Source: an uncultured delta proteobacterium
GTDB taxonomy: Bacteria; Desulfobacterota; DSM-4660; Desulfatiglandales; HGW-15
Direction of reading: 5' to 3'
DNA length: 64,000 nucleotides
Assembly (NCBI GenBank): GCA_963740905.1
Contig: CAVUFY010000008.1
Location: 190,444 to 254,443 of the forward strand
Below, piece by piece: positions 24,977-44,622 of the stretch. The notes under the pieces were generated by a model. The model did not search any database, was not told the origin of the DNA, and worked only from the letters and a program-made list of their open reading frames with translations. A program made the translations under genes and the position numbers. How positions within the stretch are numbered: position 1 is the stretch's first letter; each line of letters begins with the position of its first letter.

Positions 24977-25028
24977 GATAAACACTCCTTTCTGTTTCCG
25001 CACGCTCCGCGTCGGAGACGCCTTCCTT

Positions 25029-25138
25029 TGGGGCTTCCACCATGACCCACTGACTTTTCGGCGCCGATTGACGCCACTGCAAAAGTGGTTGCGGCTCTTA
25101 AGAGACCACCCCTGGGCCGGACCTTAGACCTTCTCCGC
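25029..25138 (+). repeat. Repeat family F, longest copy (between citrate synthase and fumC)
   Basis: Aligns with 6691-6783 and with the reverse complement of 6399-6452. Confidence 0.75.
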
Positions 25139-28612: not shown

Positions 28613-29413
28613 TCATTCCATTCTCTTATAGAGTATGCCCACCCCGAACGGATCGTCCATAGCTTCACCGATCGCCTTCTTTAGACTAGAAGGGTCATGG
28701 CTTTCCTTGAGGGGATGGACCCACTCCTTGAGGTGATCCCAGGTCTTAAACTGTTTGTCAAAGGTAACACAGGACGTATACACATGAAAGATGGCAAACC
28801 CGTGATGCTGAATCCCCTCCATGAGGGTCTTGGTGATGCCTTCCGGGTCGCCGGCAAACAGGCGCGCCACGAAAGAGGCCCCGTAGGAAAGAGCCAGCAG
28901 GCTGGCGTTTAACGGATTATCCGCGGTGCCCTGGGGCGAAGCCTTTGTTTTGAACCCCACCGGAGAACTGGGAGACGGCTGTCCCTTGGTCAGCCCGTAA
29001 ATGGAGTTATCGAAAAGAAGGTAGTTCACATCTATGTTACGCCGGCAGATGTGGGGAAGATGACCTCCCCCGATGCCCAGGCCGTCACCGTCCCCCCCTA
29101 CGGCAAACACCGTCAGTTCGGGGTTGGCCAGCTTTACGCCTGTCGCCACGGGGAGTGTCCTTCCGTGAACCGTGTGCAAGCCGTAGGTGTGAGTGAAAAA
29201 AGGATAACGGCCGGCACACCCGATGCCTGACACGGTAACGACCTTGTGATGAGGCAAGCCCAATCGCTGAATCGCGTTATTCAAGCCCTGATGAATTCCG
29301 AAATAGCCGCACCCGGGGCACCAGGTGGGAAGGCTCTCGGAGCGGATATCCAAGTCCCGGGACGCCTGAATCTTCGCCACCTGCGCGCTAAGTACTTTAC
29401 CCGACGTTTTCAT
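28613..29413 (-). CDS. korB: 2-oxoacid:ferredoxin oxidoreductase beta subunit (probably 2-oxoglutarate, by context)
   Basis: TWCPGCG, SGIGCAGR, HGRTLP, GGDGDG, DNSIYGLTKGQPSP TPP-binding motifs. Confidence 0.9.
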   Translation of the reverse strand: MKTSGKVLSAQVAKIQASRDLDIRSESLPTWCPGCGYFGIHQGLNNAIQRLGLPHHKVVTVSGIGCAGRYPFFTHTYGLHTVHGRTLPVATGVKLANPELTVFAVGGDGDGLGIGGGHLPHICRRNIDVNYLLFDNSIYGLTKGQPSPSSPVGFKTKASPQGTADNPLNASLLALSYGASFVARLFAGDPEGITKTLMEGIQHHGFAIFHVYTSCVTFDKQFKTWDHLKEWVHPLKESHDPSSLKKAIGEAMDDPFGVGILYKRME

Positions 29414-29424
29414 CTTTCTTTCCG

Positions 29425-31191
29425 TTATCTTGACCTGATGATGCTCCTCAGTTTATCAAGGATCAAAGTTGAAGACATAGGCATTCCGGGTGTCCGGTTG
29501 AGTCTCACCACGTCCTTTCTGTGAAGATGTCCTATGAGGTTGGCCAGCTGTCCTGAATGATTCAGTTCCGGAATCAGGATTTCTTTGCACCGGCCCATGA
29601 ACTCGCGGATGATCTCGCCGTGATAGGGAAAGATCGAGGTAACCTTCATGGCTCCCACGTTTAGCCCTTCTTTGTGTGCCCTTGTTACCGCCTCCAAGCC
29701 TGAACCAAACGTGGATCCCCACGCGATGATTCCCACGTCCAATGCCCCGCCGGGTGAGAACTCCCGCGGTGAGGGGAGATCAGGCAGGGCGCCCTGTATT
29801 TTCCTATGCCTCTTTTCGGTCATCTTCATGTGGTTATCAGGAGAATAATCCGGGATGCCGCTCTCGGCGTGTTCCAGGCCCGTGGCATTGAAAAGAAATC
29901 CTTCCTGTCCCGGCACCGCACGAGGCGAAACGCCCGAATCCGTCACCCCGTATCTCCGGTACTTTCCTTTACTCTCATTTCCAGGATAGACATTCCAGTT
30001 CTCCCGGTCTTTTTCCGACAGCACGGGGAGCTTCACGTTTTCGACCCGGTTGTTCAGGAAAAAATCACTCAGAACAACCACGGGAGTCTGATATTTCTCC
30101 GCCAGCTGGAAGCTCCTCATGGTATAAGTGTAGCATTCCATGACGTTGGTGGGGGCGATCACGATGCGCGCGGAATCGCCGGGACCTCCGAAAACCGCTG
30201 CATGAAGGTCGGACTGCTCCGTCTTGGTGGGAAGCCCCGTAGCCGGCCCGCCGCGCTGCGCATCGATGATGACAGCCGGGGTCTCGGACATGATCCCGTG
30301 AGTGATAAGTTCCGTCATGAGCGCGAAACCGGGACCCGAGGTAGCCGTCATGGCCCTTTGTCCTGCAAAGAAGCTTCCCAGAACCGCACCTATGGATGCT
30401 ATCTCATCCTCCATTTGCACTACTCTTCCCCCTCGCTGGGGCAGCGCTTTCGCAAGATATTCCATGATGGGTGTTGCAGGGGTAATGGGATAACCGAAGT
30501 AGAGCTTCAGCCCCGCATCCAACGCACCACGCGCAATCGCCTCGTTGCCTGACAAGAGGATCTTCTCCTTCTCCTCCTTTGTTGAAACCGCGAGCTCCTG
30601 GACAAGGTCCTTCCTGTACTCCTCCTCCGCGTACCGATGCCCTGCATCGAAGCTCTTGAGATTGGCTTCCAGCACCTTCTCCCCTTTTGGCCCGAATTTC
30701 TTCCGGATAACCCCATGAAAGGAATCTTTCGGCAGTCTGAAAAGTGCTGCAAATGCCCCCAAAGCCGCCAGGTTCTTTCCTCTGGTGCTTCCGGAGGCCG
30801 CAGCGGCAAGGTCCGAAAAAGGTATGCCATAAAGGCGGACATCCGGCTCCACGTGGGCCGCGATGGAAACGGTGGAATCCACGTAGGAAGGAGGCCTATT
30901 GTCGAAGAAAACGAAGGCGCCCTTTGCGAGAAAGGGAATCCTCGACTGGGACTGCTTGTCATCCAGAGAAATCAGAACATGGGTTCGGTCGTCGAGCGCA
31001 GGCATTTCCTCATTGCCGAACCTGGACAGGGTTACGCACCGGCCGAAACCCCTGATCTCCGCAGGGTAGGAATCAAATGCCAGAACGGAAAAGCCGGCCA
31101 CGGACATGGCCTCATTCAGAATACCGCCGGCGGCGATCGTCCCATCGCCCGACATTCCACAAATTTCAACCGTAAGATCTACAAGTGCCAT
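29425..31191 (-). CDS. korA: 2-oxoacid:ferredoxin oxidoreductase alpha subunit (gamma-alpha fusion)
   Basis: SYPAEIRG, GYPITPAT, QMEDEIAS, ATSGPGFAL, QRGGPATGLPTKTEQSD; ATG 31191 is 1 nt after the upstream stop. Confidence 0.9.
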   Translation of the reverse strand: MALVDLTVEICGMSGDGTIAAGGILNEAMSVAGFSVLAFDSYPAEIRGFGRCVTLSRFGNEEMPALDDRTHVLISLDDKQSQSRIPFLAKGAFVFFDNRPPSYVDSTVSIAAHVEPDVRLYGIPFSDLAAAASGSTRGKNLAALGAFAALFRLPKDSFHGVIRKKFGPKGEKVLEANLKSFDAGHRYAEEEYRKDLVQELAVSTKEEKEKILLSGNEAIARGALDAGLKLYFGYPITPATPIMEYLAKALPQRGGRVVQMEDEIASIGAVLGSFFAGQRAMTATSGPGFALMTELITHGIMSETPAVIIDAQRGGPATGLPTKTEQSDLHAAVFGGPGDSARIVIAPTNVMECYTYTMRSFQLAEKYQTPVVVLSDFFLNNRVENVKLPVLSEKDRENWNVYPGNESKGKYRRYGVTDSGVSPRAVPGQEGFLFNATGLEHAESGIPDYSPDNHMKMTEKRHRKIQGALPDLPSPREFSPGGALDVGIIAWGSTFGSGLEAVTRAHKEGLNVGAMKVTSIFPYHGEIIREFMGRCKEILIPELNHSGQLANLIGHLHRKDVVRLNRTPGMPMSSTLILDKLRSIIRSR

Positions 31192-31192
31192 A

Positions 31193-32209
31193 TCAAAACT
31201 GTGTCCACCAGGATGTGTTAACCTTGATCCCCTGAACTTCAAAAATGCTTTCCGCCGCCGCCTCCGCCTCTATCCTGCCTCCCAGAAGGTTTATCGCCGC
31301 AGTGCGACCAAGACGGACGGCGTTGTCGTGACCGATAGAAATCCAGTAGTCGTGAATCTGAGGGTGATAGATCTGGGCACAGTCCCCTGCGGCGTATACT
31401 TCCTCGACGCCGGTATTCAGGAATTCATCGACCAGAATGCCCCTGTCAATACGAAGCCCGGAGCCGGCCACAGAGCGGACATCAGGGACAAGACCGAAAA
31501 AAGCGCCGATGATGCCGACTTTGATCTTGTCTTCGTTCAGCTCGACTTCGCAGGCATGGCTGGAGACGCGGGCTATGCTTTTCGGGCGACGGTCCAGGAG
31601 GACTTCCACACCCTGCTGAGAAAGATGGTGCGCCGCTTCTTCCACCACGACCCTGTCATATTTCATAGGCCAGAAGGCTTCCTCATCAAACACAAAATAG
31701 ACTTTCCTGTTCATCTTGAGAAGGGCCTTTGTCAAGGCAAAAGAGGTAAGATCCCCTCCCATCACGAGGACCGAATCCGCACGGGAGAGCCTCCGGACCC
31801 ATGTCTTGGCATCTTCAGGTGTCTTGAGCGTCAGCAAGAGGTCTTGAAAAATCAGAAGAGGCTCTGGTATCCGAGGCTTTCCACCTACGGCGAGAATCAG
31901 CCCCGTATAGCGCACGATCTCTTTATGATCCAGGATGACACCCTTATCCGCGAGGCTGAGCCTAACCATTTTCTGGCCGGTTCGAAGCTTGACCCCTTTG
32001 TCCTTGTATTCTTCTGTGGGACAAACGTACAGGGAGGCTTCGGGAATTTCTCCGGCGATGAAGCCCGGCAGCAAATGAGGCCTGTAGCAGCTTTCCCTGT
32101 CCCTGCTGATAAGCGTGACATGAGCACCGGGGACTTTTTCCTTCAGGGTCAGGGCCGCCTGATTTCCCGCCGGTCCGTTACCCACAACGACAAAATGCTC
32201 TTCAGCCAT
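31193..32209 (-). CDS. FAD-dependent pyridine nucleotide-disulfide oxidoreductase-like flavoprotein (degenerate NAD(P) motif)
   Basis: VVVGNGPAG and VYAAGDC FAD motifs; the second Rossmann motif reads VMGGDLTS. Confidence 0.85.
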   Translation of the reverse strand: MAEEHFVVVGNGPAGNQAALTLKEKVPGAHVTLISRDRESCYRPHLLPGFIAGEIPEASLYVCPTEEYKDKGVKLRTGQKMVRLSLADKGVILDHKEIVRYTGLILAVGGKPRIPEPLLIFQDLLLTLKTPEDAKTWVRRLSRADSVLVMGGDLTSFALTKALLKMNRKVYFVFDEEAFWPMKYDRVVVEEAAHHLSQQGVEVLLDRRPKSIARVSSHACEVELNEDKIKVGIIGAFFGLVPDVRSVAGSGLRIDRGILVDEFLNTGVEEVYAAGDCAQIYHPQIHDYWISIGHDNAVRLGRTAAINLLGGRIEAEAAAESIFEVQGIKVNTSWWTQF

Positions 32210-32281: not shown

Positions 32282-33982
32282 TCACGATAGTCTCATAGAC
32301 CTAGAATGACACTTTTCCTCAAGGTCCACCTTGGTCACGGATATGCAGTCCACAGGGCAAACCCGCACGCACTCCCCGCACCGGATACACCGGGTATTGT
32401 CGATGACGATGGCGTTCACGTCCCGCCAGCGGGACGTCTCCACGAAACCTGTGATCGCGCCTACGTCGTTGGTCTCTATCTCTTTGACCAGTTTAATGCA
32501 GTCGCGGGGCGCCACATCAACGCAGTAACGGCAGTAAATGCAGCGGCTCACATCGATCTCATAGTGGAGGTAGCATAGATAACATCGCTTGGATTCTTCC
32601 GCTGCCTGCTCCCTGGTTAATCCTGTTTCTACTTCGGTCTTCGCGCCCTTCAAGCGCTCCTTTTCAGGCTGGACCGTAGGCATCTCCTGTCGCGGCAGAT
32701 AGTCCCAGGTTCGTTTCCTGTCCGTGATCTCGGCGTCTTCCATCCTGACAACCCTCTCACGGAAAGAGTTTGTCGTGAGATCCCGGGCAATGTTTTCCGC
32801 CGCCCTTCGGCCCATGCCCACCGCTTCGATCACGGTGGATGGGCCCGTAACATAGTCACCGGCCACGTAGAGCGCTCTCCCATCTTTTTCAGCCGTGGCT
32901 TCGATCGGCTCGGGTCGCTGGCCCGTGGCGACAATGACCGTGTCCGCGGGAATAGGGAATTCACTTCCCTTGATGGGGATGATGGTTCGCTTTCCGTCGG
33001 ATTCTGCAAGACCCGGGTCGGTCCTGACAAATTCCACGCCCTCCACCCTCCGCTCTCCCAGAACTCGGCGGGAAAGCACGAGGGACCGAATCTTGATGCC
33101 TTCCTTTCTTGCTTCCATCACCTCATCTTTGGTAACCGCGATATCTTCCTCTGTTCTCCGCAGGCAGATCGTTACATCCTCCGCCCCAAGCCTCCGGGCC
33201 GAGCGGGCGCAATCAAAAGCCGTGAACCCTGCTCCGATCACAAGAACCCGGCGTCCGATGACAGGCGGTCGCCCGAGGCAAACATCCATCATGAACTCGA
33301 GACCGGCATAAACCCCGCTTAGACTTTCCCCGGGCACTTTCAGGGGTATGGACTTGTAGCACCCTGCTGCGAGCAGGACCGCGTCGAAATCTCTGAGAAG
33401 TTCCTCCACCGCCACATCCCTGCCGACTCGAACTCCTGTCCGGAGTGCCACTCCCGTTTCCAGAACGCGACCGACCTCCTCATCCAAGACGTGGCGGGGG
33501 AGCCTGAACTCCGGAATTCCATACCTGAGCATACCTCCCGCCTTGTGGAGAGTTTCAAGAATGGTCACGGAAAAGCCGAGCGTGGAAAGATCGTGGGCCG
33601 CCGCGAGACCGGCGGGCCCTGATCCGACGATGGCTACTTTTTTGCCCAGGGAAGCAAGAGGGCCTTCCGTGAAGTGGGGAGGACGTTGTTTCAGGTCCGC
33701 CGCAGCCCTCTTGATGTGACAAATATTGACCGGACGGCCCAGTTCCGGCTCACCGTGCCGGCACTTGTCTTCACAGGGCCGGGAACAAATCCTGCCGAGC
33801 ACGCCGGGAAAGATGTTGGCCATTCGATTGATTTCGTAGGACTCGTCGTATTTTCCCTCGTAGAGCGCACGAATGTAAGCCGGGATGTTGGTTGCAGCGG
33901 GGCAAGCCGCCTGGCAGGGCACATTGACACTGACGTAGTAAAAATCTTCCGGGTCGGTGGAGTAAACGACTTGTCTGTCCAT
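32282..33982 (-). CDS. GltD/NfnB-like FeS flavoprotein with C-terminal ferredoxin domain
   Basis: PCQAACP...LGRICSRPCEDKC...IC, GSGPAG, GGMLRYGIPEFRLP, GAGFTAFD..R, CLRR, KRCYLC, CIYCRYCVDVAP, CIRCGECVRVCP; SD GAGGTG before ATG 33982. Confidence 0.9.
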   Translation of the reverse strand: MDRQVVYSTDPEDFYYVSVNVPCQAACPAATNIPAYIRALYEGKYDESYEINRMANIFPGVLGRICSRPCEDKCRHGEPELGRPVNICHIKRAAADLKQRPPHFTEGPLASLGKKVAIVGSGPAGLAAAHDLSTLGFSVTILETLHKAGGMLRYGIPEFRLPRHVLDEEVGRVLETGVALRTGVRVGRDVAVEELLRDFDAVLLAAGCYKSIPLKVPGESLSGVYAGLEFMMDVCLGRPPVIGRRVLVIGAGFTAFDCARSARRLGAEDVTICLRRTEEDIAVTKDEVMEARKEGIKIRSLVLSRRVLGERRVEGVEFVRTDPGLAESDGKRTIIPIKGSEFPIPADTVIVATGQRPEPIEATAEKDGRALYVAGDYVTGPSTVIEAVGMGRRAAENIARDLTTNSFRERVVRMEDAEITDRKRTWDYLPRQEMPTVQPEKERLKGAKTEVETGLTREQAAEESKRCYLCYLHYEIDVSRCIYCRYCVDVAPRDCIKLVKEIETNDVGAITGFVETSRWRDVNAIVIDNTRCIRCGECVRVCPVDCISVTKVDLEEKCHSRSMRLS

Positions 33983-34077
33983 GCTCACCTCGTCATGTTT
34001 GGTGCACAACCTATCCCATCAAATTTTCATCACGAAAAGGAACATCTTCATCCCTTCTTCCGATTTCGTGCTTTCTC

Positions 34078-34791
34078 CTATTTCGTGTCTTCGTGTTTGA
34101 GTCGCTTTTCGATCTCTCTCTTGATGGTATTGATCGACTTTGTCACCGGGATCTCCTTGGGGCAGACCCGGGTGCACTCAAAGTGATTGACGCAGGGCCA
34201 AGCGCCGTTCGGATCGTCGGCCTGTCTCAGCCGCTCTTCACGAGCCTCATCCCGAGAGTCGAAAATGTAGCGGTACATCCAGACAAGAGCAGCTGGACCC
34301 ACGTAATTCCTGCTGTAACCCATGACGGGGCAACTGGCTGTGCAGCAGCCACAAAGGATACAGCGAACCACATCATCGACTTTCTTCCGGTTTTCCGGAC
34401 TCTGGAGAATTTCTTTGTCCCCCTTTTCCTCGGCCATGAGATACGGTTTTACCGCATTGACGCCCTCCAGAAAAGAGTCCATGTCCACCACCAGATCCTT
34501 GAGGACCCGGAATACGGGCAGGGGCTCGAGAACAATCTCAGGGCACATGTAATCTTTAATGAGTTTTTGACAGGCGAGGCCGCATGTTCCGTTGATTCTC
34601 ATCCCGTCTGAGCCGCATACGCCGTGGCCGCAGGACATGCGATAACTGAGGGTCCCGTCCTGTTCCCACTTGATGCGGTTCAAACAGTCCAGTATCCTAT
34701 CCTGCGCATCCGCCTCTACCTTGTAGTGACGGAAATAGGGGCCGGGATCAGCGGCGGGATCATAGCGAAAAATCTTGAATCGGACTTCCAT
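34078..34791 (-). CDS. sdhB: Succinate dehydrogenase/fumarate reductase iron-sulfur subunit
   Basis: SCGHGVCGSD...LAC, CILCGCCTASCP, CVNHFECTRVCP. Confidence 0.95.
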   Translation of the reverse strand: MEVRFKIFRYDPAADPGPYFRHYKVEADAQDRILDCLNRIKWEQDGTLSYRMSCGHGVCGSDGMRINGTCGLACQKLIKDYMCPEIVLEPLPVFRVLKDLVVDMDSFLEGVNAVKPYLMAEEKGDKEILQSPENRKKVDDVVRCILCGCCTASCPVMGYSRNYVGPAALVWMYRYIFDSRDEAREERLRQADDPNGAWPCVNHFECTRVCPKEIPVTKSINTIKREIEKRLKHEDTK

Positions 34792-34792
34792 A

Positions 34793-36514
<1,722 letters not shown>

Positions 36515-37019
36515 GTTGTCTATGCCTTTCTCTCCGTGATCAAACCCGCCGACGCGGCTTTCCTGCTGCGAACATGGACTTTTTCAGCACCCTGCTAGAT
36601 TAGAAGACACCGCCACAGGGAGAAATAGGGTAAATCCTGTATTTTTTGGTCAACAGACAATGCACTTTTGCACGTGTGAGACGAGATTGTCAAAATGAAA
36701 CCTGCCGCGGTCGTGATGATTCAGTTTCGAGTGGGTCCACCTGTATCAATGAACTAGCCGCGCTCCCGGGGAGGAGTTGAAGAGATCCCTCTCCGGGGGA
36801 CGAGGCGGGTTTTTGTTCCTATATAAACGCCCCCGCAGCGAAGCGCCGGGGTACAAGTGCTCAAGACTTAATCGTTACCCGCAGCGGGCCTCACATGGAT
36901 GACACCCGGATGGTGGGATTCTCCCCCGTTGACTTTGCCTCTGCGAATGGTTATCTAACGAACGATTCTGAATTTTTCGCCAACAAGAACTTAACCACCT
37001 CATGCCTAGGAGGGGAATC

Positions 37020-38075
37020 ATGAGCCAGGAATCGCCTCTCGAGTGCCGGATACTGGAAAGGGTCAAGGAAAGAGATAAAATCGGTGTGTGGGGTTTCGGC
37101 AATGTTTCAAGGGACGTCGTGTTGTCGCTGGTGGATCAGGGACTCGGGAAGGAGATCGTTTTCTACGGAAGACCCAAGGAAAAATATCCCAACAGGGCCG
37201 GGACCTGGATCGAAGACCTGAAAGCCAACTCCATTCATCGTCCTCGCATTTACGGCACCAACCAGACTGATGACATGGCCGGTCTCGACGTGATCTTCAT
37301 CGGCGTGGGCGTTCCGCGCAAAGAGGGCCAAAGCCGGAGGGACCTTCTCGCAGTCAATACGGAGGTGATCGCCGAAGCCTCCTTCGAAATCCGCAGGCTT
37401 TATCAGGGCTGCGGGACCAAGGACTTACCCATCCTCGTTTACATGGGGAATCCTGTGACCACGATGACCTGGGTGGGTTACAAGGCTACAGGATTTCCAC
37501 GGGCAAACATTGTGGGCCAGGCCGGAAACCTGGATGCGAGAAGGATCTGCCATGCCCTATCCAAACTGATCGGTCTCTCAGGCAACGACCTGAGAGGGAT
37601 TGTCTTCGGAGAACACGGCGACTCCATGGTCGCCAGCACCCGGTTTTTCTCTGTAGGAGGGGTGCCTCTTGACGATGTTGTTCGCGCCCAGGGGATCGAC
37701 CCGGCCGTGATCAACCGCGCCATCGAAGACGCGAAAAAAGGCGGAACCCATTTCGTGAACGAAACCGGTCAGAGCGCGTCGGCGGGCCCCGCGAGGGCCG
37801 CATGTGATATGCTGCGCTGTATGATTCTCGGGGAGGCCGAGGTTCAGCCTGTGATCGCTATCTTTGAAAAGGAATACGGTCTCCTGAAAAAAGAGGACGG
37901 TCTCGATTCCATGAGTTTCGGGGTGCCTGCCAAGATTGGGCCCTACGGTGTGGAAAAGATCTACGAACTTCCGGTGGAGGATATCAGGGGCCAGTTGGAG
38001 AGATCCGCCTCCATTATCAAGGAGGACATCAAGGCCGCCGCAGGGATCCTGAAGGAAAAGTACGGCATTACCTAG
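37020..38075 (+). CDS. mdh: Malate dehydrogenase (LDH-like), atypical cofactor site
   Basis: GVPRKEGQSRRDLL (Arg specificity residue), GNPV, LDARR, GEHGDSMV; SD GGAGGGG before ATG 37020. Confidence 0.88.
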   Translation: MSQESPLECRILERVKERDKIGVWGFGNVSRDVVLSLVDQGLGKEIVFYGRPKEKYPNRAGTWIEDLKANSIHRPRIYGTNQTDDMAGLDVIFIGVGVPRKEGQSRRDLLAVNTEVIAEASFEIRRLYQGCGTKDLPILVYMGNPVTTMTWVGYKATGFPRANIVGQAGNLDARRICHALSKLIGLSGNDLRGIVFGEHGDSMVASTRFFSVGGVPLDDVVRAQGIDPAVINRAIEDAKKGGTHFVNETGQSASAGPARAACDMLRCMILGEAEVQPVIAIFEKEYGLLKKEDGLDSMSFGVPAKIGPYGVEKIYELPVEDIRGQLERSASIIKEDIKAAAGILKEKYGIT

Positions 38076-38133
38076 CTGCCTCGTGGAGGCGTCTTGCGCC
38101 TCTTATGCTTTCGAGGTCAAAAGGATCTTCCGC

Positions 38134-39564
38134 TTACTTCTGGCTCTTCTTCGGCAGCAGATGAGTGACGCTGCCGAGGAAAATTTCCGCCACCTCTCCT
38201 ACCGTCTCGGAGAGGGTGGGGTGTGGATGGATGCTAAGTCCTACGTCCGCAGGCAGAGCGCCCATTTCCACGGCCAGCACTCCCTCTGAGATCAACCCTT
38301 CGGCATGGCGTCCTGCGATACCGAACCCCAGAACCCTTTCCGTCTCCCCATCGACGACCATCTTTGTCACTCCCGCAGCGGCGTCTATCGTGGTGGCCCG
38401 GGGTGAAAATTTCCAAGGGTAGCGTTCAATCCTCACAGTTCGCTTTTGCTTGCGCGCCTGTTCTTCGGTCAGCCCACACCACGCAACCTGAGGATCGGTG
38501 AAAACCACGGCAGGGATGGCCCTCGCATCAAAAGCCGACGGCTCTCCCGCTATGACTTCCGCCGCAACCTTTCCCTCCCGAAAGGCCTTGTGCGCAAGCT
38601 GAGGTCCTCCGGCCACATCGCCAATGGCAAAGATCTTCTCATCCTTTGTCCGCTGCTGCTCGTCAACGACCACGAAGCCCTTATCATTCACTTTCACGTT
38701 GGTCTTGTCCAGACCGATACCCTCGGACTTGGGGTCTCTTCCCACGGCGACCAGCACCCGATCAAAGGACTGCTCGGATTTGTCTATGTCCCCCTCAAAC
38801 ATGACCTCCACCCTGTCCGATTGCTCCTTCATGGATTTGACCCGGGTGTTGAAATGAATGGCGTCGAAAAGTTCTTCCAGTCTTTTCGCGAGAGGGGCCA
38901 CAAGATCGGTATCGGCCCCCCGCAACATCCTTTCGCTCCGAACCGCGAGAGAAACGCGGGTTCCCAGGGAGGCGTAAACCGTTCCCATTTCGAGGGCGAT
39001 ATACCCTCCGCCGATGATGAGGAGTGAGTCGGGTATCTCGGGAAGTTCCAGTGCCCCTGCCGAATCCATGATGCGACTTCCCTTCTCAAACTTTGTGCCC
39101 GGGAAAGGAGCGGGGCACGACCCGGTCGCAAGAATGGCATGACGGTACTTGATGTGGCTCACCTCCGAATCATGGAGGCGGACCGTGCCGGAATCTTCGA
39201 ACTCAACCCGGCCTTGTATCAGCTCCACTCCCCTCTTCTTGCTCAGAGTGACCAGCCCATCCGCCAGCTTGTCCACCACCTCATCTTTCCATCTGCGAAT
39301 CTTTTCCGCATCAATTTGCGGTTTGCCAAAAGCCACGCCCATTCTTTCCGAGCGCTGCGCGTCATGGATGAGTTCCGCCAGGGAGAGCAAGGTCTTGGAC
39401 GGAATGCAGCCTCGGAACAGGCATTCACCCCCGGGCCTCGGTGCCATGTCAACCATCGTGACTTCCAGGCCGAGATCCGCCGCTCGGAACGCCGCAGCGT
39501 AGCCTCCCGGCCCGCTTCCGATGACGAGAACCTGTGTCTCTTCGGTAAATTCTCCCATAACCAT
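38134..39564 (-). CDS. lpdA: Dihydrolipoyl dehydrogenase (E3)
   Basis: GSGPGGY, GGECLFRGCIPSK redox disulfide, IHPHPTLSE; start set at ATG 39564 because the track's 5' extension is repeat DNA. Confidence 0.95.
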   Translation of the reverse strand: MVMGEFTEETQVLVIGSGPGGYAAAFRAADLGLEVTMVDMAPRPGGECLFRGCIPSKTLLSLAELIHDAQRSERMGVAFGKPQIDAEKIRRWKDEVVDKLADGLVTLSKKRGVELIQGRVEFEDSGTVRLHDSEVSHIKYRHAILATGSCPAPFPGTKFEKGSRIMDSAGALELPEIPDSLLIIGGGYIALEMGTVYASLGTRVSLAVRSERMLRGADTDLVAPLAKRLEELFDAIHFNTRVKSMKEQSDRVEVMFEGDIDKSEQSFDRVLVAVGRDPKSEGIGLDKTNVKVNDKGFVVVDEQQRTKDEKIFAIGDVAGGPQLAHKAFREGKVAAEVIAGEPSAFDARAIPAVVFTDPQVAWCGLTEEQARKQKRTVRIERYPWKFSPRATTIDAAAGVTKMVVDGETERVLGFGIAGRHAEGLISEGVLAVEMGALPADVGLSIHPHPTLSETVGEVAEIFLGSVTHLLPKKSQK

Positions 39565-39585
39565 TGCCCAAATCCCCCTTTTGAA

Positions 39586-39697
39586 AATCCGAAGCACGAA
39601 TATCGAAATTCGAAGTATCTCCATCACAGTTACGAGTGACGAGTAACAAGTAGATTATAAATGAACTTGTCACTCGTGACTCGTCACTTGTCACTTT
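39586..39697. repeat. Adjacent heptad arrays: CGAAAT-type (about 39586-39616) and family A core (39628-39697)
   Basis: AGTTACGAGTGACGAGTAACAAGTA equals the reverse complement of 3496-3520; TCGTGACTCGTCACTTGTCACTTTC is also present at about 63556-63580. Confidence 0.75.
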
Positions 39698-39769
39698 CCC
39701 TTTGAAAGGAAAACAGCGCCGTCGAATCTGTCCACGTGCACCCAACGATGGTCGTATTCGAGCAACCTG

Positions 39770-41125
39770 TTAGGTCATCATCATGAACAGTTCTTCAGGG
39801 TCCTCGAGGGCTTCCACGATCATCCTCAGGAAGGGAACGGCATCTGCGCCGTCCAGCACCCGGTGATCGATGCACAGCACAAGGGGCATCTTGAGCCTTG
39901 GTTCGATCCGATAGCCCTGCTTCTCGTTTCCTATGACTGCCGGCTGCATGGTGGCCGCTCCCATACCCAGGATGGCCGCCTCCGGATAGTTGATGATGGG
40001 GACGAACTGGCCTCCGCCCATGGGGCCCACGTTCGTGATGGTAAAAGTTCCTCCTTGCAACTCCCCGAGGTTCACTTTTCTCTGTCTTGTCCTCTCGGCC
40101 AGTTCCTTGAGTTCGATGCTCAGATCCAGAATGCTCTTCCGGTCCACGTCTTTGATCACGGGCACAATGAGGCCGTCGTCGGTTGCGACCGCCACCCCTA
40201 CGTGATAGTAATGTTTTTCGATGATTTCCCCGGCTTGTGGATCGATGCTCGAGTTGAATCGAGGAAAGGCCTTGAGTGCCGTTGCCGCTGCTTTCAAAGC
40301 AAATACGGTATGGGTCAGCTTGCCGCCCTTGGCCTCGATCTCTTCTTTGTGCTTGCGGCGGAAAGCTTCCAGCTTGCTCATGTCCGCCACATCCTGGTTG
40401 TTCACGTGGGGAATTTGCGACCACGCCACAGCCATTTGCCTTGCCGTGGATTTCCGGATGGAACGCAGGGGCACCCGCTCTATCGGGCCCCATCTGGAAA
40501 AGTCGGGAAGCTTGGGTGCCGGCGCCGCCAGCGGTCTTTCTTCTTTTGGCTTTTCTTCAGGTTTCTTTTCCGCTTTTTCTTCCCGCCTTTCTTCGGGCTT
40601 TTCTTTTCCCTCTGCAAAAGCTCTCACATCCTCTGCGGTGACCAAACCCTTCGGCCCCGAGGGTCTGACTCGTCTCAATTCCACACCCAGTTCCCGGGCC
40701 AGACGACGGGTAGCGGGCGATGCAGGAACCGGCCCTTCCCGGGGTTTCTCCGTCGGAAGCTCTTCCTCGCGGCCCTTTTCCTCCTCTTTCTCTTTCGGAG
40801 GTTTTTTCTCCGGCTTTCCTTCGGGAGGCTTTTCCTCTTTCTCCTCTACCCTTTCTTCAGAAGGCTTTCCAGTCTCGGCTGCCTCCTCTCCCACGCTGAA
40901 GGTCATCATCACGTCACCTACATTCACCGTGTCACCCGGTTTGATGCGGATCTCTTTCACCACCCCTGTATAGGGCGAGGGGACTTCCACCGCCGCTTTG
41001 TCCGTTTCCACCTCCAGGATGATGTCTCCTTCATTGACCTTGTCTCCTTCAGATACCCGGACAGACAGGATCTCTCCCTCATGAATGCCCTCTCCCAGGT
41101 CCGGCAGCTTGAATTCTTTAGGCAT
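39770..41125 (-). CDS. pdhC: 2-oxoacid dehydrogenase E2 (dihydrolipoamide acyltransferase), one lipoyl domain
   Basis: ETDKAAVEVPSP lipoyl Lys, PASPATRRLARELGV E3-binding domain, DHRVLDGAD. Confidence 0.93.
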   Translation of the reverse strand: MPKEFKLPDLGEGIHEGEILSVRVSEGDKVNEGDIILEVETDKAAVEVPSPYTGVVKEIRIKPGDTVNVGDVMMTFSVGEEAAETGKPSEERVEEKEEKPPEGKPEKKPPKEKEEEKGREEELPTEKPREGPVPASPATRRLARELGVELRRVRPSGPKGLVTAEDVRAFAEGKEKPEERREEKAEKKPEEKPKEERPLAAPAPKLPDFSRWGPIERVPLRSIRKSTARQMAVAWSQIPHVNNQDVADMSKLEAFRRKHKEEIEAKGGKLTHTVFALKAAATALKAFPRFNSSIDPQAGEIIEKHYYHVGVAVATDDGLIVPVIKDVDRKSILDLSIELKELAERTRQRKVNLGELQGGTFTITNVGPMGGGQFVPIINYPEAAILGMGAATMQPAVIGNEKQGYRIEPRLKMPLVLCIDHRVLDGADAVPFLRMIVEALEDPEELFMMMT

Positions 41126-41140
41126 GACTCGTTCCTCCCC

Positions 41141-42121
41141 TCATATGCTCAATGCTTTTCTGGATGCTTTGAGTATGCGCTCGGCGCCCGGCAGGTACGC
41201 CTTTTCCTTGCTGAACAACGGGATGACGACGTCAAACCCCGTCACCCGGGCAATGGGAGCTTCCAGGTAGAAAAAGGCCTTTTCCACGAGACGGGAAATG
41301 ATCTCCCCGGCAGGACCAAAGCTCCGGGGCGCTTCGTGGACAATCACCGCCCTCCCCGTCTTCTTCACAGACTCCACGAGCAAGGCGTCATCCAGCGGTG
41401 AGATGGTCATCAGGTCGATCACCTCAGCCTGAACTCCATCCTTCTCGTTGAGTGCTACGGCCGCCTCCAGGGTGGGACGCATCATGGCCCCGTAAGAAAT
41501 CATGGTCAAATCTTTTCCTTCTTGCACTATCCGAGGTTTGCCCAGCGGCAACGTTTCCTCTTCTTCCGGCACTTCTTCGCGAAAAGCGCGGTAGAGAGCC
41601 TTCGCTTCATAGAAGATGACCGGGTCCGGATCGCGGATGGCGCTGACAAGCAGGGCCCTGGCATTCCGAGGGCTTGAGGGAATGACCATCTTGAGGCCTG
41701 GAATATGAGCCCAGAAAGCTTCCCTGCTCTCGGAGTGATGTTCGAGGGCTCGCACCCCTCCCCCGTAAGGAGCCCGCAGCACCATGGGCACCGTCAGCCG
41801 CCCCTGGGTCCGCCAGCGTATCCTTGACGCATGGCATTCGATCTGATGAAAAGCGAGATAACTGAAACCGGAAAACTGCATTTCGCACACCGGCTTGAGC
41901 CCGTATATCGCCATGCCGATGGACATGCCGGCGATGCCCGATTCCGCCAGAGGCGTGTCGAGCGCCCTGTCCTCGCCGAACTCGTCGATGAGGCCGTCCG
42001 TGACACGGAAAACCCCTCCGTCCCTGCCCACGTCCTCTCCCAAGACGATCACGCTGTCGTCCTTTTTCATTTCCTGGCGGAGGGCCAGGTTCAATGCCTG
42101 CACCATCGTCATCTTAGCCAT
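41141..42121 (-). CDS. pdhB: Pyruvate/2-oxoacid dehydrogenase E1 beta
   Basis: GEDVGRDGGVFRVT, DTPLAESGI, EHHSES, VIVHEAP. Confidence 0.93.
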   Translation of the reverse strand: MAKMTMVQALNLALRQEMKKDDSVIVLGEDVGRDGGVFRVTDGLIDEFGEDRALDTPLAESGIAGMSIGMAIYGLKPVCEMQFSGFSYLAFHQIECHASRIRWRTQGRLTVPMVLRAPYGGGVRALEHHSESREAFWAHIPGLKMVIPSSPRNARALLVSAIRDPDPVIFYEAKALYRAFREEVPEEEETLPLGKPRIVQEGKDLTMISYGAMMRPTLEAAVALNEKDGVQAEVIDLMTISPLDDALLVESVKKTGRAVIVHEAPRSFGPAGEIISRLVEKAFFYLEAPIARVTGFDVVIPLFSKEKAYLPGAERILKASRKALSI

Positions 42122-43220
42122 GGTTCTTCTCCTTCCCGGTCCCGGACATTTCTGCTTTTGCCTCCTCCCTCTGTTCCGCCAAATATGGGGGCATGTCCGC
42201 ATAAACGTGCTCGAACATCTGGAGCGGGTCGTTGTATTTCTTCATCAGTTCCTCCGCCCGGTCTACTGCGCCTTGAATTTCATCCTTGACCTCCGATTCC
42301 ACCTCCTCGACCTTTTCGTCCGAGAGAAGTCCTTTGTCCTTCAGATATTTCTGAAACCTGGTGATGGGATCTTTTTTCCTCCACCCTTCCACTTCCTCGT
42401 CCTTGCGATAGCGCTTCGGGTCATCAGCGGTGGTGTGCATCATCATCCGGTAGGTTTCGCATTCAATCATCGTGGGCCCCTCCCCTGCCCGTGCTCTATC
42501 TACCGCCTCTTCTGCCGCAGCGTAAACTGCCAGCACATCATTCCCGTCCACCTGTATGCCCGGCATCCCGTAAGCGAGAGCTTTCTGGGCGAGAGTCTTC
42601 GAACGAGTCTGTTTGGACCTGGGAACCGAGATGGCCCACTGGTTGTTCTGGCATACAAAAATAACGGGGACCTGAAAAACTCCTGCGAAGTTCATACCTT
42701 CGTGAAAGTCCCCCTCCGAGGTGCCCCCATCCCCGAAAAAGGTCATGGCCACGTCCTTCTTCTTCCGATACTTGATTCCCCAGGCGATGCCGACGGCATG
42801 AAGGACTTGGGAGCCAACAGGGACAGAATTAGGAAGATCATTCCCCTCTTCCAGCAAAAGAGCCGCCTCGTTGTACCCTCCGAAACTGAGAATAACGGAT
42901 TCCATGGGCGCGCCCCGGTAGATCTGGGCCGCTGTCTCGCGGAATGAAGGGACCATGAAGTCGGATGGCTTCAGAACCGCAGCCGCGCCCAGTTGAGAAG
43001 CCTCCTGGCCTGAGGTGGGGGCAAAAGTCCCGATTCGACCCTGCCTCTGAAGGCTGAGAACCCTTTCGTCAAACCTTCGTCCCAAGATCATGGCCTTGTG
43101 AAGTTTCAGCAGAAGCTCATCGGGAATCCGGGGTTCAAGTTCTTCATCGAGTTGACCTTTGTCATCAAGGATGGAAAGGTAATCTACCTGGTAGGGAAGA
43201 TCCACTTTGCTTCTTGGCAT
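42114..43220 (-). CDS. pdhA: Pyruvate/2-oxoacid dehydrogenase E1 alpha
   Basis: LQRQGRIGTF, GDGGTSEGDFHEGMNFA...QNNQWAIS TPP motif, HTTADDP..YR. Confidence 0.93.
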   Translation of the reverse strand: MPRSKVDLPYQVDYLSILDDKGQLDEELEPRIPDELLLKLHKAMILGRRFDERVLSLQRQGRIGTFAPTSGQEASQLGAAAVLKPSDFMVPSFRETAAQIYRGAPMESVILSFGGYNEAALLLEEGNDLPNSVPVGSQVLHAVGIAWGIKYRKKKDVAMTFFGDGGTSEGDFHEGMNFAGVFQVPVIFVCQNNQWAISVPRSKQTRSKTLAQKALAYGMPGIQVDGNDVLAVYAAAEEAVDRARAGEGPTMIECETYRMMMHTTADDPKRYRKDEEVEGWRKKDPITRFQKYLKDKGLLSDEKVEEVESEVKDEIQGAVDRAEELMKKYNDPLQMFEHVYADMPPYLAEQREEAKAEMSGTGKEKNHG

Positions 43221-43476
43221 GACAGACTCCTTTTGTTGTCGTTCCAAAATTGATAGGCTTCGAGAATTCATACTCCATAACGATGGGCAAACTGTATGGG
43301 GTGTTTCCTGTATTTTTTGAAAAATGGACACTTACTACTCGGAGCATCAAATTGTTTGCATGGAACGTCAAGAATAGGGAGCATGAGGCTTTTCTGCCGT
43401 ACAGCTTGCTTTTTGTGATGATCAACCCCATTTTATGGATGGCTGATAAGCGGAAGAGTAGAAAGGAGGACAGTTG

Positions 43477-44622
43477 ATGGACTTTTCGATACCTCAAGAG
43501 ACCTTGGAAGAAGTGGATCGTTTCAAAACTTTCCTGGACAAGAACCTTTCGCCTCATCTTTCCCTCTGGTACGAGCAAGGCGCTGTTCCACGCTCCTTCT
43601 TTTCTCTCATGGCTGATGAAGGCTGGTTCAATTTCTCTATTCAGGGGAACCGCGTGGTGAAGCATTCTGCGCTCAGGGAATCTCTCCTTGCGGAACAGAT
43701 GGCGAAGGTGTCGCCGGGCGTGACGGTGGCTGTTCTTGCGCATCAGGATTTGGGGCTCACAGGGGTGTGGCTTTTCGGGTCTGATGCCCTGCAGAAAGAG
43801 TATGGCCCTTCGGCTGTTGCGGGAAAAACACTCCTTTGCATCGGCAACACGGAAAGCACAGCCGGAAGCGATTCGGCAAACATCGCCATGCAAGCCAAGA
43901 AAGTGGAAGGGGGCTGGGTTCTGAATGGGTCCAAAGCTTACGTGACCAACGGCTACATCAGTGACCTTGCCATTGTGACCGCCGTTTCTCATCCTCAGGC
44001 GGATCGGAATCACCGAATCTCCATGTTCCTCGTCAACCTTGAATCGGAAGGCGTGAGCAGATCCAAACTTAACAAAAAGGTCTGGGTTCCTTCCGATCTC
44101 ACGCGGATTCAGTGCTCCAACGTGTTCGTCCCCGAAGATCACCTTCTGGGAGAGCCCGGAAGAGGACTGCAGCAAGTCCTTTCCGTGTTCACTCACAGCA
44201 GGGTGATTATCAGTGCCCTCACCCTGGGGACTGCTCAGGGGGCTTTTGATCTGGCCGTGAGTCACGGCAAAAGAAGGAAGATTTTTGGCCGCCCTGTGCT
44301 CGATCAGGAGGCCAAGGCGTTCGAGGTGGCCGATCACTTTGCCGGACTGGAGAGCGCTCGCCTTGTGATGCTCAAGGCTTGCTGGGCCATGGACCAGGGC
44401 AAGGATTTCCGTCTTGAATCTTCCCTTGCGAAATATCTGGCTGTCAACATTGCCCGGGAGGTGGGGACGTGGGCCGCCGATCTTTTCGGAGCAGCTTCGG
44501 TGATCTTCGATCACCCCATTCACAAGTTCCCCATGGATGCCTGGGCATCATCCCTCGGCGAAGGGACTCAGGATGTGCAGAAGCTCGTCATATTCAGGGA
44601 GGTAATGAAGACTTTTCAGTGA
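43477..44622 (+). CDS. Acyl-CoA dehydrogenase
   Basis: TESTAGSD, LNGSKAYVTNG, RKIFGRP, GEGTQDVQKLVI. Confidence 0.92.
   Translation: MDFSIPQETLEEVDRFKTFLDKNLSPHLSLWYEQGAVPRSFFSLMADEGWFNFSIQGNRVVKHSALRESLLAEQMAKVSPGVTVAVLAHQDLGLTGVWLFGSDALQKEYGPSAVAGKTLLCIGNTESTAGSDSANIAMQAKKVEGGWVLNGSKAYVTNGYISDLAIVTAVSHPQADRNHRISMFLVNLESEGVSRSKLNKKVWVPSDLTRIQCSNVFVPEDHLLGEPGRGLQQVLSVFTHSRVIISALTLGTAQGAFDLAVSHGKRRKIFGRPVLDQEAKAFEVADHFAGLESARLVMLKACWAMDQGKDFRLESSLAKYLAVNIAREVGTWAADLFGAASVIFDHPIHKFPMDAWASSLGEGTQDVQKLVIFREVMKTFQ

Follow-up and report, generated by a model that had tools for sequence, protein, structure and literature searches.

NADP-type fingerprints in a pyruvate dehydrogenase operon and adjoining TCA genes of a Desulfatiglandales bacterium suggest central-carbon enzymes that may be linked through NADP(H)

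The NADPH site of glutathione reductase includes R218, H219 and R224 in the human enzyme and R198 and R204 in E. coli. In the related dihydrolipoyl dehydrogenase (E3, Lpd) of E. coli, Glu205 is the switch residue for the cofactor: E205A and E205G arose during the evolution of an NADPH auxotroph, and E205V with four further changes gave a 100-fold preference for NADP+ (PMC8406311). The engineered enzyme is listed as E203V/M204R/F205K/D206H/P210R with G185A/G189A (PMC8406311). Malate dehydrogenases follow a D/E52 rule for NAD selection (PMC13147460). Peptoclostridium acidaminophilum, an anaerobe, has an NADP-dependent glycine cleavage system in which a lipoyl protein is re-oxidised with NADP+ (PMC12674515), and Hydrogenobacter thermophilus has a soluble five-subunit NADH-dependent fumarate reductase (PMC13147460). 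KGOR-alpha, of 2-oxoglutarate:NADP+ oxidoreductase, belongs to the GltD/NfnB family (PMC10134865).

We analysed a 64,000-nucleotide stretch of DNA (the window) from a wetland relative of sulfate-reducers (Desulfatiglandales; HGW-15). The original prediction had placed NADP fingerprints in an FeS flavoprotein, a malate dehydrogenase (Mdh) and an Lpd of the window, and all three were confirmed at the positions it gave (Table 1). The PDH operon is complete (E1a-E1b-E2-E3, all on one strand). Some gene starts differ from the reading frames: KorA probably starts a few codons downstream, E1 beta probably at an internal ATG near residue 28 and E1 alpha likely at the ATG at 43220. The GTG at 39627 is an upstream artefact and not the start of Lpd, as the homologs are 474-476 aa long.

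Table 1 Features of the region, with positions in the window
Feature	Position	Strand	Basis
KorB, 2-oxoacid:acceptor oxidoreductase beta	28613..29413	-	NCBIfam PorB_KorB 260 bits, PRK11866 275 bits
KorA, 2-oxoacid:acceptor oxidoreductase alpha (fused alpha/gamma)	29425..31242	-	TIGR03710 OAFO_sf 554.6 bits, cut-off 482.75
Flavo338, 338-aa flavoprotein resembling PadH, NorW and ferredoxin-reductase proteins	31193..32209	-	position conserved in 11 loci
GltD/NfnB-family FeS flavoprotein (GltD-like)	32282..34009	-	Pfam Fer4_20, Pyr_redox_2, Fer4_7; PRK12771 400 bits
SdhB, iron-sulfur subunit	34078..34791	-	PRK05950 283.7 bits, cut-off 228
SdhA, flavoprotein subunit	34793..36514	-	TIGR01816 809 bits, cut-off 727
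Divergent LDH-like malate dehydrogenase, NADP-type site (variant Mdh)	37020..38075	+	Pfam Ldh_1_N/C
Dihydrolipoyl dehydrogenase (E3, Lpd), glutathione-reductase-like NADP fingerprint	38134..39564	-	TIGR01350 460.7 bits, cut-off 408.8
E2 dihydrolipoyl acyltransferase (lipoyl, E3-binding, catalytic domains)	39770..41125	-	Pfam 2-oxoacid_dh, Biotin_lipoyl, E3_binding
E1 beta	41141..42202	-	PRK09212 301 bits; Transket_pyr and Transketolase_C domains
Pyruvate dehydrogenase E1 alpha	42114..43331	-	TIGR03181 PDH_E1_alph_x 466.6 bits, cut-off 411

The Lpd motif at 38920-39012 (GGGYIALEMGTVYASLGTRVSLAVRSERMLR; GGGYIA...LAVRSERMLR) resembles the glutathione reductase site. The third Gly of GxGxxG is replaced by Ala (GxGxxA), the end of beta-2 carries no acid, and two Arg have the same spacing, falling on R218 and R224 of human glutathione reductase in an ungapped match (query 4-77 = chain 190-263). 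In the alignment with E. coli Lpd (4JDR), Val stands for Glu205, Arg for Met206 and Arg for Pro212, and the NAD+ site combination (GxGxxG with an acid at the beta-2 end, E. coli Glu205) is absent. As aligned, the native Val, Arg, Arg and GxGxxA of this predicted NADP-type E3 match the changes by which E. coli Lpd, of the same family and operon role (E3 of PDH), is turned to NADP+ use. Positions 207 and 208 are Ser/Gly-Glu/Asp here and Lys-His in the engineered enzyme, and the protein here is natural and conserved through a whole Thermodesulfobacteriota clade. Unlike glutathione reductase, which has His there, Lpd retains an acidic Glu/Asp two residues past the Arg (VRSE/VRSD). Outside this site the domain, like the protein as a whole, is also Lpd-like, with Lpds as the nearest solved structures, and the gene belongs to a PDH operon. 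Further marks of an E3 are a score above the TIGR01350 cut-off, the intact redox CLFRGC (CxxxxC, residues 48-53) and HPHPTLSE dyad (HxxxxE, 446-453), and the co-encoded E1 and E2. The P. acidaminophilum system, in contrast, lies outside any 2-oxoacid dehydrogenase complex; no classical Lpd gene is found by its glycine-cleavage cluster, and the annotated candidates elsewhere in that genome are 27-35% identical to Lpd.

The Mdh motif at 37092-37175 (GFGNVS...VFYGRP) contains a Gly-Arg pair that aligns with the Gly-Arg of VLIGR in PDB 1HYE, and LISR occupies the position of FYGR in PDB 9sd3, an entry deposited under the name 'malate dehydrogenase (NADP+)'. FY[GS]R is present in 120/120 homologs, and the NAD-selecting acid (Asp/Glu 52/53) is missing. 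The archaeal NADP(H) LDH-like enzymes (MJ0490, 1HYE; 9sd3) and chloroplast NADP-MDH likewise have Gly/Ser-Arg for the NAD-selecting Asp and share the malate-type Arg102. Equivalents of R102 (malate-selecting), R109, D168, R171 and H195 are all kept, and GVPRKEGQSRRDL, NLDARR and GEHGDS are conserved across the variant family. This family differs from the archaeal enzymes in being bacterial, in a conserved ~20-aa N-terminal extension and two insertions, in GFGNVS instead of GASGxVG or GAGNVG, and in an identity of only 32% to 1HYE (M. jannaschii MJ0490). It is also discrete, with identities of 66-83% that then fall to 27%, and the protein scores under both NCBIfam MDH cut-offs (PRK06223, 197 vs 283 bits; TIGR01763, 172 vs 352). 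These comparisons show a distinct LDH-like subfamily of predicted malate dehydrogenases that shares Gly/Ser-Arg with the archaeal NADP(H) enzymes. TCA clusters house the variant Mdh in 25 of 37 loci, a context that supports malate/oxaloacetate as its predicted substrate.

Both signatures had been called atypical in the original prediction, and the comparison bears this out: they are conserved and belong to specialised paralogs that stand alongside NAD-type copies in the same genome. The canonical NAD-Mdh passes TIGR01763 (468 vs 352) and lies on contig C9 beside an SdhC(b558)-SdhA-SdhB set; NAD-type Lpds are encoded on contigs C4 and C16. The Lpd signature is present in 119/120 homologs (at least 69% identity). 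Within a phylum sample of 301 genomes, NADP-type E3 was found in only 3 and variant Mdh in 8. Given this conservation (119/120 Lpd, 120/120 Mdh) and this rarity, the fingerprints are not due to chance.

The E3 and Mdh could have relaxed rather than switched specificity, using both NAD and NADP or mainly NAD, so that the signatures would reflect tolerance or regulation and no NADPH economy. We consider this unlikely, although a single E205A/G makes E. coli Lpd dual-specific, with about equal efficiency with both cofactors (PMC8406311), and depositions of MJ0490-type enzymes describe them as using NAD(P)+. Cofactor fingerprints are also imperfect predictors of preference. Some members of the Lpd clade have His for the first Arg (AVHR), and two loci (L088 and L089) have an intermediate VHR with GxGxxG. 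The native E3, however, combines the Ala of GxGxxA, the loss of the acid and both 2'-phosphate Arg, which is the engineered 100-fold NADP+ combination. The residues of Lpd, and likewise those of Mdh, are under strong purifying conservation, and retaining NAD-type paralogs alongside would be redundant were the variants generalists. We lean modestly towards an accessory soluble NADP(H)-linked central-carbon enzyme set, encoded here in parallel to the ordinary NAD/quinone-linked set of the genome.

The variants would be distributed independently across genomes if they were unrelated, a pattern that the original prediction had named as its refutation. They are not: among 201 genomes of the order, many of them incomplete MAGs, variant Mdh and NADP-type Lpd gave counts of 20/7/9/165 (both, Mdh only, Lpd only, neither), an odds ratio of 52 uncorrected for phylogeny. 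At genus level the counts were 15/2/6/65. The association is strong without being obligatory. Odds ratios for the parts ranged from 30 to 78 in the 201 genomes, and from 50 to 78 for Mdh, E3 and flavoprotein, again uncorrected for phylogeny. NADP-type E3 occurred in 24/24 PDH-E3 orthologs from genomes with the variant Mdh, and all 27 scorable PDH-E3 hits of the order sample were NADP-type. Adjacency of the PDH-E3 gene to E2 is preserved in 14/14 orthologous loci.

These TCA and PDH genes might descend or move as one genomic island without redox coupling, each NADP signature having evolved separately. Several observations fit this: the distribution is patchy even inside genera, suggesting gain and loss of the block; Mdh and Lpd are adjacent in 6/37 loci; the statistics are uncorrected for phylogeny; and the parts are separable, as in Desulfarculaceae-like genomes (variant Mdh, yet no orthologous PDH-E3) and genus g244 (NADP-Lpd and GltD-like without variant Mdh). 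The co-occurrence nevertheless holds where the genes are unlinked (e.g. L003, L011, L019, L020, L027, L029), lying 220 kb apart in one genome (G327) and on separate contigs in others. The NADP-type E3 forms a single clade nested within NAD-type PDH-E3, whose orthologs also adjoin E2. It arose inside a lineage that already had the GltD-like-Kor block as well as the variant Mdh, and the sister NAD-type genomes have neither; in the phylum sample, variant Mdh was present in 3/3 genomes with NADP-type PDH-E3 vs 0/11 with NAD/His-type. Moreover, E3, Mdh, Icd and GltD-like are four separate enzymes that indicate the same cofactor. We regard the island explanation as improbable. Conserved NADP-type sites in E3 and Mdh, the adjoining NADPH-type flavoprotein and the joint travel across genomes suggest that an NADP(H)-linked form of central carbon metabolism may exist in nature.

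The flavoprotein has a 2x[4Fe-4S] domain at its N-terminus and a 2x[4Fe-4S] ferredoxin domain at its C-terminus, as well as sites for FAD and NADPH. Its NADPH motif GAGFTA...ICLRR at 33155-33241 (VIGAGFTAFDCARSARRLGAEDVTICLRR) aligns with V(V/L)YRR of solved NfnB/GltD chains and is kept in 13/15 orthologous loci under a strict pattern. The protein thus has the features of a GltD/NfnB-type NADPH FeS flavoprotein (2x[4Fe-4S], FAD, GxGxxA...(Y/L)RR), and its GxGxxA...LRR is normal for the family, as originally read. At 575 aa it has a mass of about 63 kDa, and the largest subunit of Azoarcus evansii KGOR is reportedly also about 63 kDa. GltD-like-Flavo338-KorA-KorB formed an invariant block in the loci compared, with Flavo338 always between GltD-like and KorA and KorB syntenic with the other three in related loci. 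The best NCBIfam match of Flavo338 was PadH, the phenylglyoxylate dehydrogenase epsilon subunit, at 110 bits, far under the cut-off. Adjacency of KorA, KorB and GltD-like is conserved in 11-15 loci. The two-subunit Kor with a GltD/NfnB-family, putatively NADP+-coupling subunit resembles A. evansii KGOR, a likeness drawn from synteny and the published family assignment (PMC10134865). It differs by the extra Flavo338 between GltD-like and korA and, in some genomes, by inserted SdhAB.

The original prediction changes in one respect, as the flavoprotein is not primarily a partner of SdhAB. SdhB lies just 68 nt from the downstream GltD-like gene, but SdhAB is missing from 9/15 GltD-like loci, and the GltD-like-Flavo338-KorAB block is also found in genomes without any soluble SdhA. 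As the constant neighbour of the flavoprotein is KorAB with the small flavoprotein, not SdhAB, the gene order points to a putative module resembling 2-oxoglutarate:NADP+ oxidoreductase, which soluble SdhAB may optionally join. The expected co-occurrence of Mdh and Lpd with anchor-less sdhAB was found in part: across the 201 genomes both associate with soluble-type SdhA, more loosely than with GltD-like. The SdhAB operon contains no membrane anchor gene; it leaves no room for sdhC/D, and none lies upstream of SdhA, which a 488-nt spacer separates from the divergent mdh. Like those of the H. thermophilus enzyme (PMC13147460), the SdhA/B-type catalytic subunits lack an anchor, belong to a TCA cluster and would work together with soluble redox subunits. 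The H. thermophilus type has dedicated soluble subunits C, D and E for electron input. The set here differs in that no HdrB/C-like genes (D and E subunits) were seen with SdhAB, in that the cofactor would be NADPH, and in having a candidate electron-input subunit that it shares with KorAB and that is linked more tightly to KorAB.

We infer the cofactor preference, flux direction and physical partnerships of these enzymes as follows. Oxidative decarboxylations would pass electrons to NADP+: PDH via the NADP-type E3, the NADP-Icd, and Kor via the GltD-like subunit, in the manner of the A. evansii enzyme. The variant Mdh would spend NADPH on converting oxaloacetate to malate, and soluble SdhAB, where present, would form succinate from fumarate with NADPH electrons carried by the GltD-like FeS chain. 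The net result would be a branched TCA with a redox loop closing on NADPH. For the reductive direction of Mdh and soluble SdhAB the argument is purely thermodynamic: fumarate reduction by NAD(P)H (~ -58 kJ/mol) is irreversible, with NADPH poised at about -380 mV (PMC13147460). A reversed oxidative or reductive TCA for CO2 fixation, with NADPH driving Mdh, soluble fumarate reductase and Icd, Kor as synthase and the PDH operon unrelated, is very unlikely. In its favour, genes for citrate synthase, aconitase, KorAB, SdhAB, fumC and Mdh form a cluster; it has also been argued that reductive steps are favoured by NADPH, and fumarate reductases of the AB-only kind are found near rTCA genes (PMC13147460). 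Against it, the irreversible oxidative NADP-type PDH co-occurs with the module far above chance, the GltD-like-Flavo338-Kor block resembles the oxidative, NADP+-reducing KGOR, and fumC is frameshifted in this assembly.

The other cofactor enzymes of the genome agree with the proposed NADPH loop. Icd is NADP-type, the PntAB transhydrogenase (PntB) is absent from this genome, and an NfnAB candidate is present, which would probably connect the loop to ferredoxin and NADH. With lpd itself covered only little and DNA carry-over possible, a sediment metatranscriptome contains near-identical transcripts for the variant mdh, sdhA, E2, E1b and E1a.

The dihydrolipoyl dehydrogenase (E3) of the PDH operon scored 460.7 bits against the lipoamide dehydrogenase equivalog model (cut-off 408.8), and its redox disulfide and His-Glu dyad are intact. 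Alignment of the NAD(P) site to E. coli Lpd (4JDR) paired GGGYIA...LAVRSERMLR in E3 with GGGIIG...VVEMFDQVIP in E. coli, so that Glu205 is replaced by Val, Met206 and Pro212 by Arg, and the third Gly by Ala. The two Arg fall on R218 and R224 of human glutathione reductase in an ungapped match. Glu205 of E. coli Lpd is an experimentally established switch residue: E205A/G arose during the evolution of NADPH-auxotrophic E. coli, and combining E205V with four other substitutions made the enzyme prefer NADP+ 100-fold (PMC8406311). A domain swap from glutathione reductase or MerA was ruled out because the isolated NAD(P) domain still best matches Lpd structures, which points to point substitutions as the source of the altered motif.

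The Arg/His...Arg pattern, with no acidic residue, is found in 119 of the 120 top-ranking Lpd homologs, which are 69-100% identical, and the 50%-identity cluster representative nearest to the query E3 is NAD-type. In a maximum-likelihood tree, a single clade unites the NADP-type E3s (SH-aLRT 80) and lies inside a group of NAD-type orthologs that likewise adjoin E2 (enclosing node 98). These results mark the putative NADP-type E3 as a derived lineage of recent origin. A sister PDH-E3 lineage adjoining E2 (loci L088 and L089, genomes G238 and G178) has GxGxxG...LVHRG, having lost the acid and gained His-Arg with no second Arg; it may represent an intermediate state. NADP-like sites (MVQRS, ISYRGERLLR, and IIHRS) were also detected in unrelated Lpd-like lineages (proteins P0269, P0293, and P0300), indicating that the cofactor switch occurred more than once.

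The LDH-like malate dehydrogenase beside the PDH operon (variant Mdh) carries the cofactor motif GFGNVS...VFYGRP and keeps its substrate and catalytic residues. In a multiple alignment, its Gly-Arg coincides with the Gly-Arg of M. jannaschii MJ0490 (PDB ID: 1HYE), and Ser-Arg occupies the same position in PDB 9sd3, a deposition titled 'malate dehydrogenase (NADP+)'. FY[GS]R is present in 120/120 homologs. The family is discrete, with 66-83% identity at 37 loci and the next best match at 27% (one-genome-per-species contigs). It scores under both NCBIfam MDH cut-offs, and the frequent NCBI name of its homologs is 'hypothetical protein'. The analysis flags a malate dehydrogenase subfamily that current annotation pipelines often leave under that name. 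TCA genes adjoin variant Mdh at 25 of the 37 loci, which supports a genuine TCA role. We consider an NADP preference likely for E3 and likely, in equal measure, for variant Mdh. The family also has a conserved N-terminal extension of ~20 residues (xECRF/IxERVKERDK, in which a Cys is conserved), as well as two insertions (RRLYxGCxxxDLP and GLLKxxDGLDSM), all absent from other LDH-like MDHs. In chloroplast NADP-MDH, extensions that contain Cys mediate redox regulation.

Genes of the PDH-Mdh-Sdh-Kor region, in order along the minus strand
Feature	Position	Strand	Remark
Acyl-CoA dehydrogenase	43474-44622	plus	
PDH operon E1a-E1b-E2-E3	43331 down to 38134	minus	
E3 (dihydrolipoyl dehydrogenase, lpd)	38134-39564	minus	
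LDH-like malate dehydrogenase (variant mdh)	37020-38075	plus	divergently transcribed, between PDH operon and SdhA
SdhA, anchor-less	34793-36514	minus	past mdh
SdhB	34078-34791	minus	
GltD/NfnB-like FeS flavoprotein	32282-34009	minus	
338-aa flavoprotein	31193-32209	minus	
KorA (longest ORF)	29425-31242	minus	
KorB	28613-29413	minus	
Aconitase, citrate synthase		minus	downstream of KorB
fumC, split	23598-25123	minus	downstream of KorB

The original prediction read NADP fingerprints in E3, Mdh, and the GltD-like flavoprotein. All three are present in the sequence, and the GltD-like signature, GAGFTA...ICLRR, is normal for its family, being the counterpart of YRR in solved NfnB and GltD chains. 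A pairing of the flavoprotein with the soluble Sdh held only in part: SdhAB adjoins the GltD-like gene in only 6 of the 15 loci with GltD-like, 338-aa flavoprotein, and KorAB genes, whereas the 338-aa flavoprotein followed by KorAB is always downstream of it. At least two genomes (G364 and G427) have this block together with variant Mdh and NADP-type PDH and lack any soluble-type SdhA. From the invariant gene order, Kor is the predicted primary partner of the GltD-like flavoprotein. A known Kor that includes a GltD/NfnB-family subunit is the Azoarcus evansii 2-oxoglutarate:NADP+ oxidoreductase (family assignment from PMC10134865). The ORF of the 338-aa flavoprotein shares 50 nt with the longest KorA ORF, which makes translational coupling of the two probable. 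The best family match of the 338-aa flavoprotein is PadH. PadH is the FAD subunit of phenylglyoxylate dehydrogenase and links a 2-oxoacid:ferredoxin-type enzyme to NAD+.

A coordinated re-wiring of these enzymes had been proposed, and their distribution agrees with it. Among 201 genomes of the order, many of them incomplete MAGs, variant Mdh was carried by 27, NADP-type E3 by 29, the GltD-like ortholog by 35, and soluble-type SdhA (at least 60% identity) by 22. Pairwise odds ratios were 30-78 (Fisher p 1e-10 to 1e-17), statistics that ignore kinship. Mdh, E3, and GltD-like occurred together in 17 genomes, and all four including SdhA in 11. Collapse to genera, used in place of a phylogenetically corrected co-evolution test, gave a Mdh x E3 table of 15/2/6/65. 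The association persists without linkage, between genes separated by 220 kb or located on different contigs, and is not obligate, with 7 Mdh-only and 9 Lpd-only genomes. In the phylum sample, 14 of 301 genomes had an orthologous PDH-E3, and variant Mdh was found in 3/3 with NADP-type E3 versus 0/11 with NAD- or His-type. Conversely, 23 of the 37 variant-Mdh species have an orthologous E3, NADP-type in 24/24 proteins; three Desulfarculaceae-titled loci and other outlying lineages have variant Mdh without it.

The window spans positions 190444-254443 of contig C8 in a genome of 5.29 Mb that is 99% complete. This genome also encodes a canonical Mdh with LLD on contig C9, which passes TIGR01763 and adjoins SdhC(b558)-SdhA-SdhB, and NAD-type Lpds (VVE, ILE) on contigs C4 and C16, with another E1/E2 set next to the C16 copy. 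Because these ordinary copies are kept, the E3 and Mdh variants are specialised paralogs and not sole enzymes. The canonical set (C9:31555-37527: an oxaloacetate decarboxylase or pyruvate carboxylase-type carboxyltransferase subunit, SdhC of the b558 family, SdhA, SdhB, and NAD-type Mdh) mirrors the soluble NADP-type set of the window. No icd was found in the 64-kb window. In line with the NADP(H)-wired carbon hub originally predicted, Icd (contigs C1 and C11) is an NADP-type equivalog with K-Y and Y...R specificity residues, a genome search for PntAB found none (PntB is absent), and a candidate NfnA/NfnB pair is located at C6:69736-72064. The NADP-icd gene is present twice in nearly identical form (C1:2840-4084 and C11:271913-273235), at or near contig ends, probably reflecting an assembly repeat or duplication boundary.

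We propose that NADP+ would be reduced by oxidative decarboxylations, namely by PDH via the NADP-type E3, by Icd, and by Kor via the GltD-like subunit. NADPH would then drive a reductive branch in which variant Mdh would turn oxaloacetate into malate and, where soluble SdhAB is present, electrons would pass from NADPH through the GltD-like FeS chain to reduce fumarate to succinate. Nfn would join NADPH to ferredoxin and NADH. This scheme resembles the pyruvate dismutation first suggested, enlarged by Kor and Icd. The argument for a reductive direction of the Mdh and SdhAB steps is thermodynamic: fumarate reduction with NAD(P)H comes to ~ -58 kJ/mol and is irreversible, oxaloacetate reduction comes to ~ -26 kJ/mol, and NADPH in cells is poised near -380 mV (PMC13147460), so that NADP+ is an implausible oxidant for malate or succinate. 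Functional coupling of E3, Mdh, and the associated enzymes seems rather probable, and we lean slightly towards the mechanism as a whole, with both cofactor preferences and the coupling. The anchor-less SdhAB is reminiscent of the NADH-fumarate reductase of Hydrogenobacter thermophilus, which is soluble and multi-subunit (PMC13147460), but the HdrB/C-like subunits of that enzyme were not seen at the window locus.

A bolder and doubtful reading is a natural NADP+-dependent PDH complex in an anaerobic Thermodesulfobacteriota clade, whose NADPH would be oxidised again by an NADP-malate dehydrogenase dedicated to this task and by a soluble complex with multiple flavins and FeS centres; in this complex, one NfnB-like subunit would join NADP(H) to both the 2-oxoglutarate:acceptor oxidoreductase and anchor-less SdhAB. 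Such a complex may bifurcate electrons at a flavin, using the exergonic transfer from NADPH to fumarate to drive the reduction of ferredoxin. Contigs of a sediment metatranscriptome were 98-100% identical to variant mdh, sdhA, E2, E1b, and E1a, with minimal lpd coverage, which hints weakly at expression of these five genes in a near-identical strain, DNA carry-over being possible.

To our knowledge, PDH complexes are treated as NAD+-specific, with NADP+-using versions so far coming from protein engineering or laboratory evolution. Our literature search did not turn up any natural NADP-type (NADP-dependent) Lpd-family E3; NADP-linked glycine cleavage in clostridia involves atypical proteins (PMC12674515). 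The enzyme families at the locus are all known. What appears to be new, as predicted from sequence, is a natural Lpd-family PDH E3 with an NADP fingerprint and a distinct bacterial NADP-type MDH subfamily, and the correlated distribution of both with the NADPH-linked Kor/Sdh module also appears new. If correct, a natural, conserved E3 with engineered-type substitutions, co-inherited with NADP-type MDH and this module, would mean that evolution had already made the switch, and would offer ready-made parts for engineering NADPH-regenerating pathways. Electron-flow models would also change for Desulfatiglandales and related wetland anaerobes, organisms in which NADPH and Nfn could supply low-potential reactions. 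The closest homologs of the window proteins come from MAGs labelled Desulfatiglandales or Thermodesulfobacteriota, and wetland and marsh metagenomes contain DNA near-identical to the window.

Upstream starts were dismissed from homolog lengths for lpd (GTG at 39627; homologs 476 aa) and mdh (ATG at 37002; homologs 351 aa). A 452-aa minus-strand ORF (43165-44523) without family match is regarded as spurious, and the plus-strand acyl-CoA dehydrogenase that it overlaps is the real gene. Within the TCA cluster, a frameshift splits fumC, which encodes a class II fumarase, with the N-terminal 130-odd residues in frame 24578-25123, the remainder in 23598-24656, and the overlap near 24578-24656; the break either stems from a sequencing error or marks a pseudogene. 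The 205-nt E2-lpd spacer (39565-39769) contains inverted GTGACGAGT-type repeats, a MITE-like element. In a close relative's contig from a wetland DNA run, 39586 is joined to 39771 via 111 different letters versus 184 here, so the spacer is polymorphic between strains.
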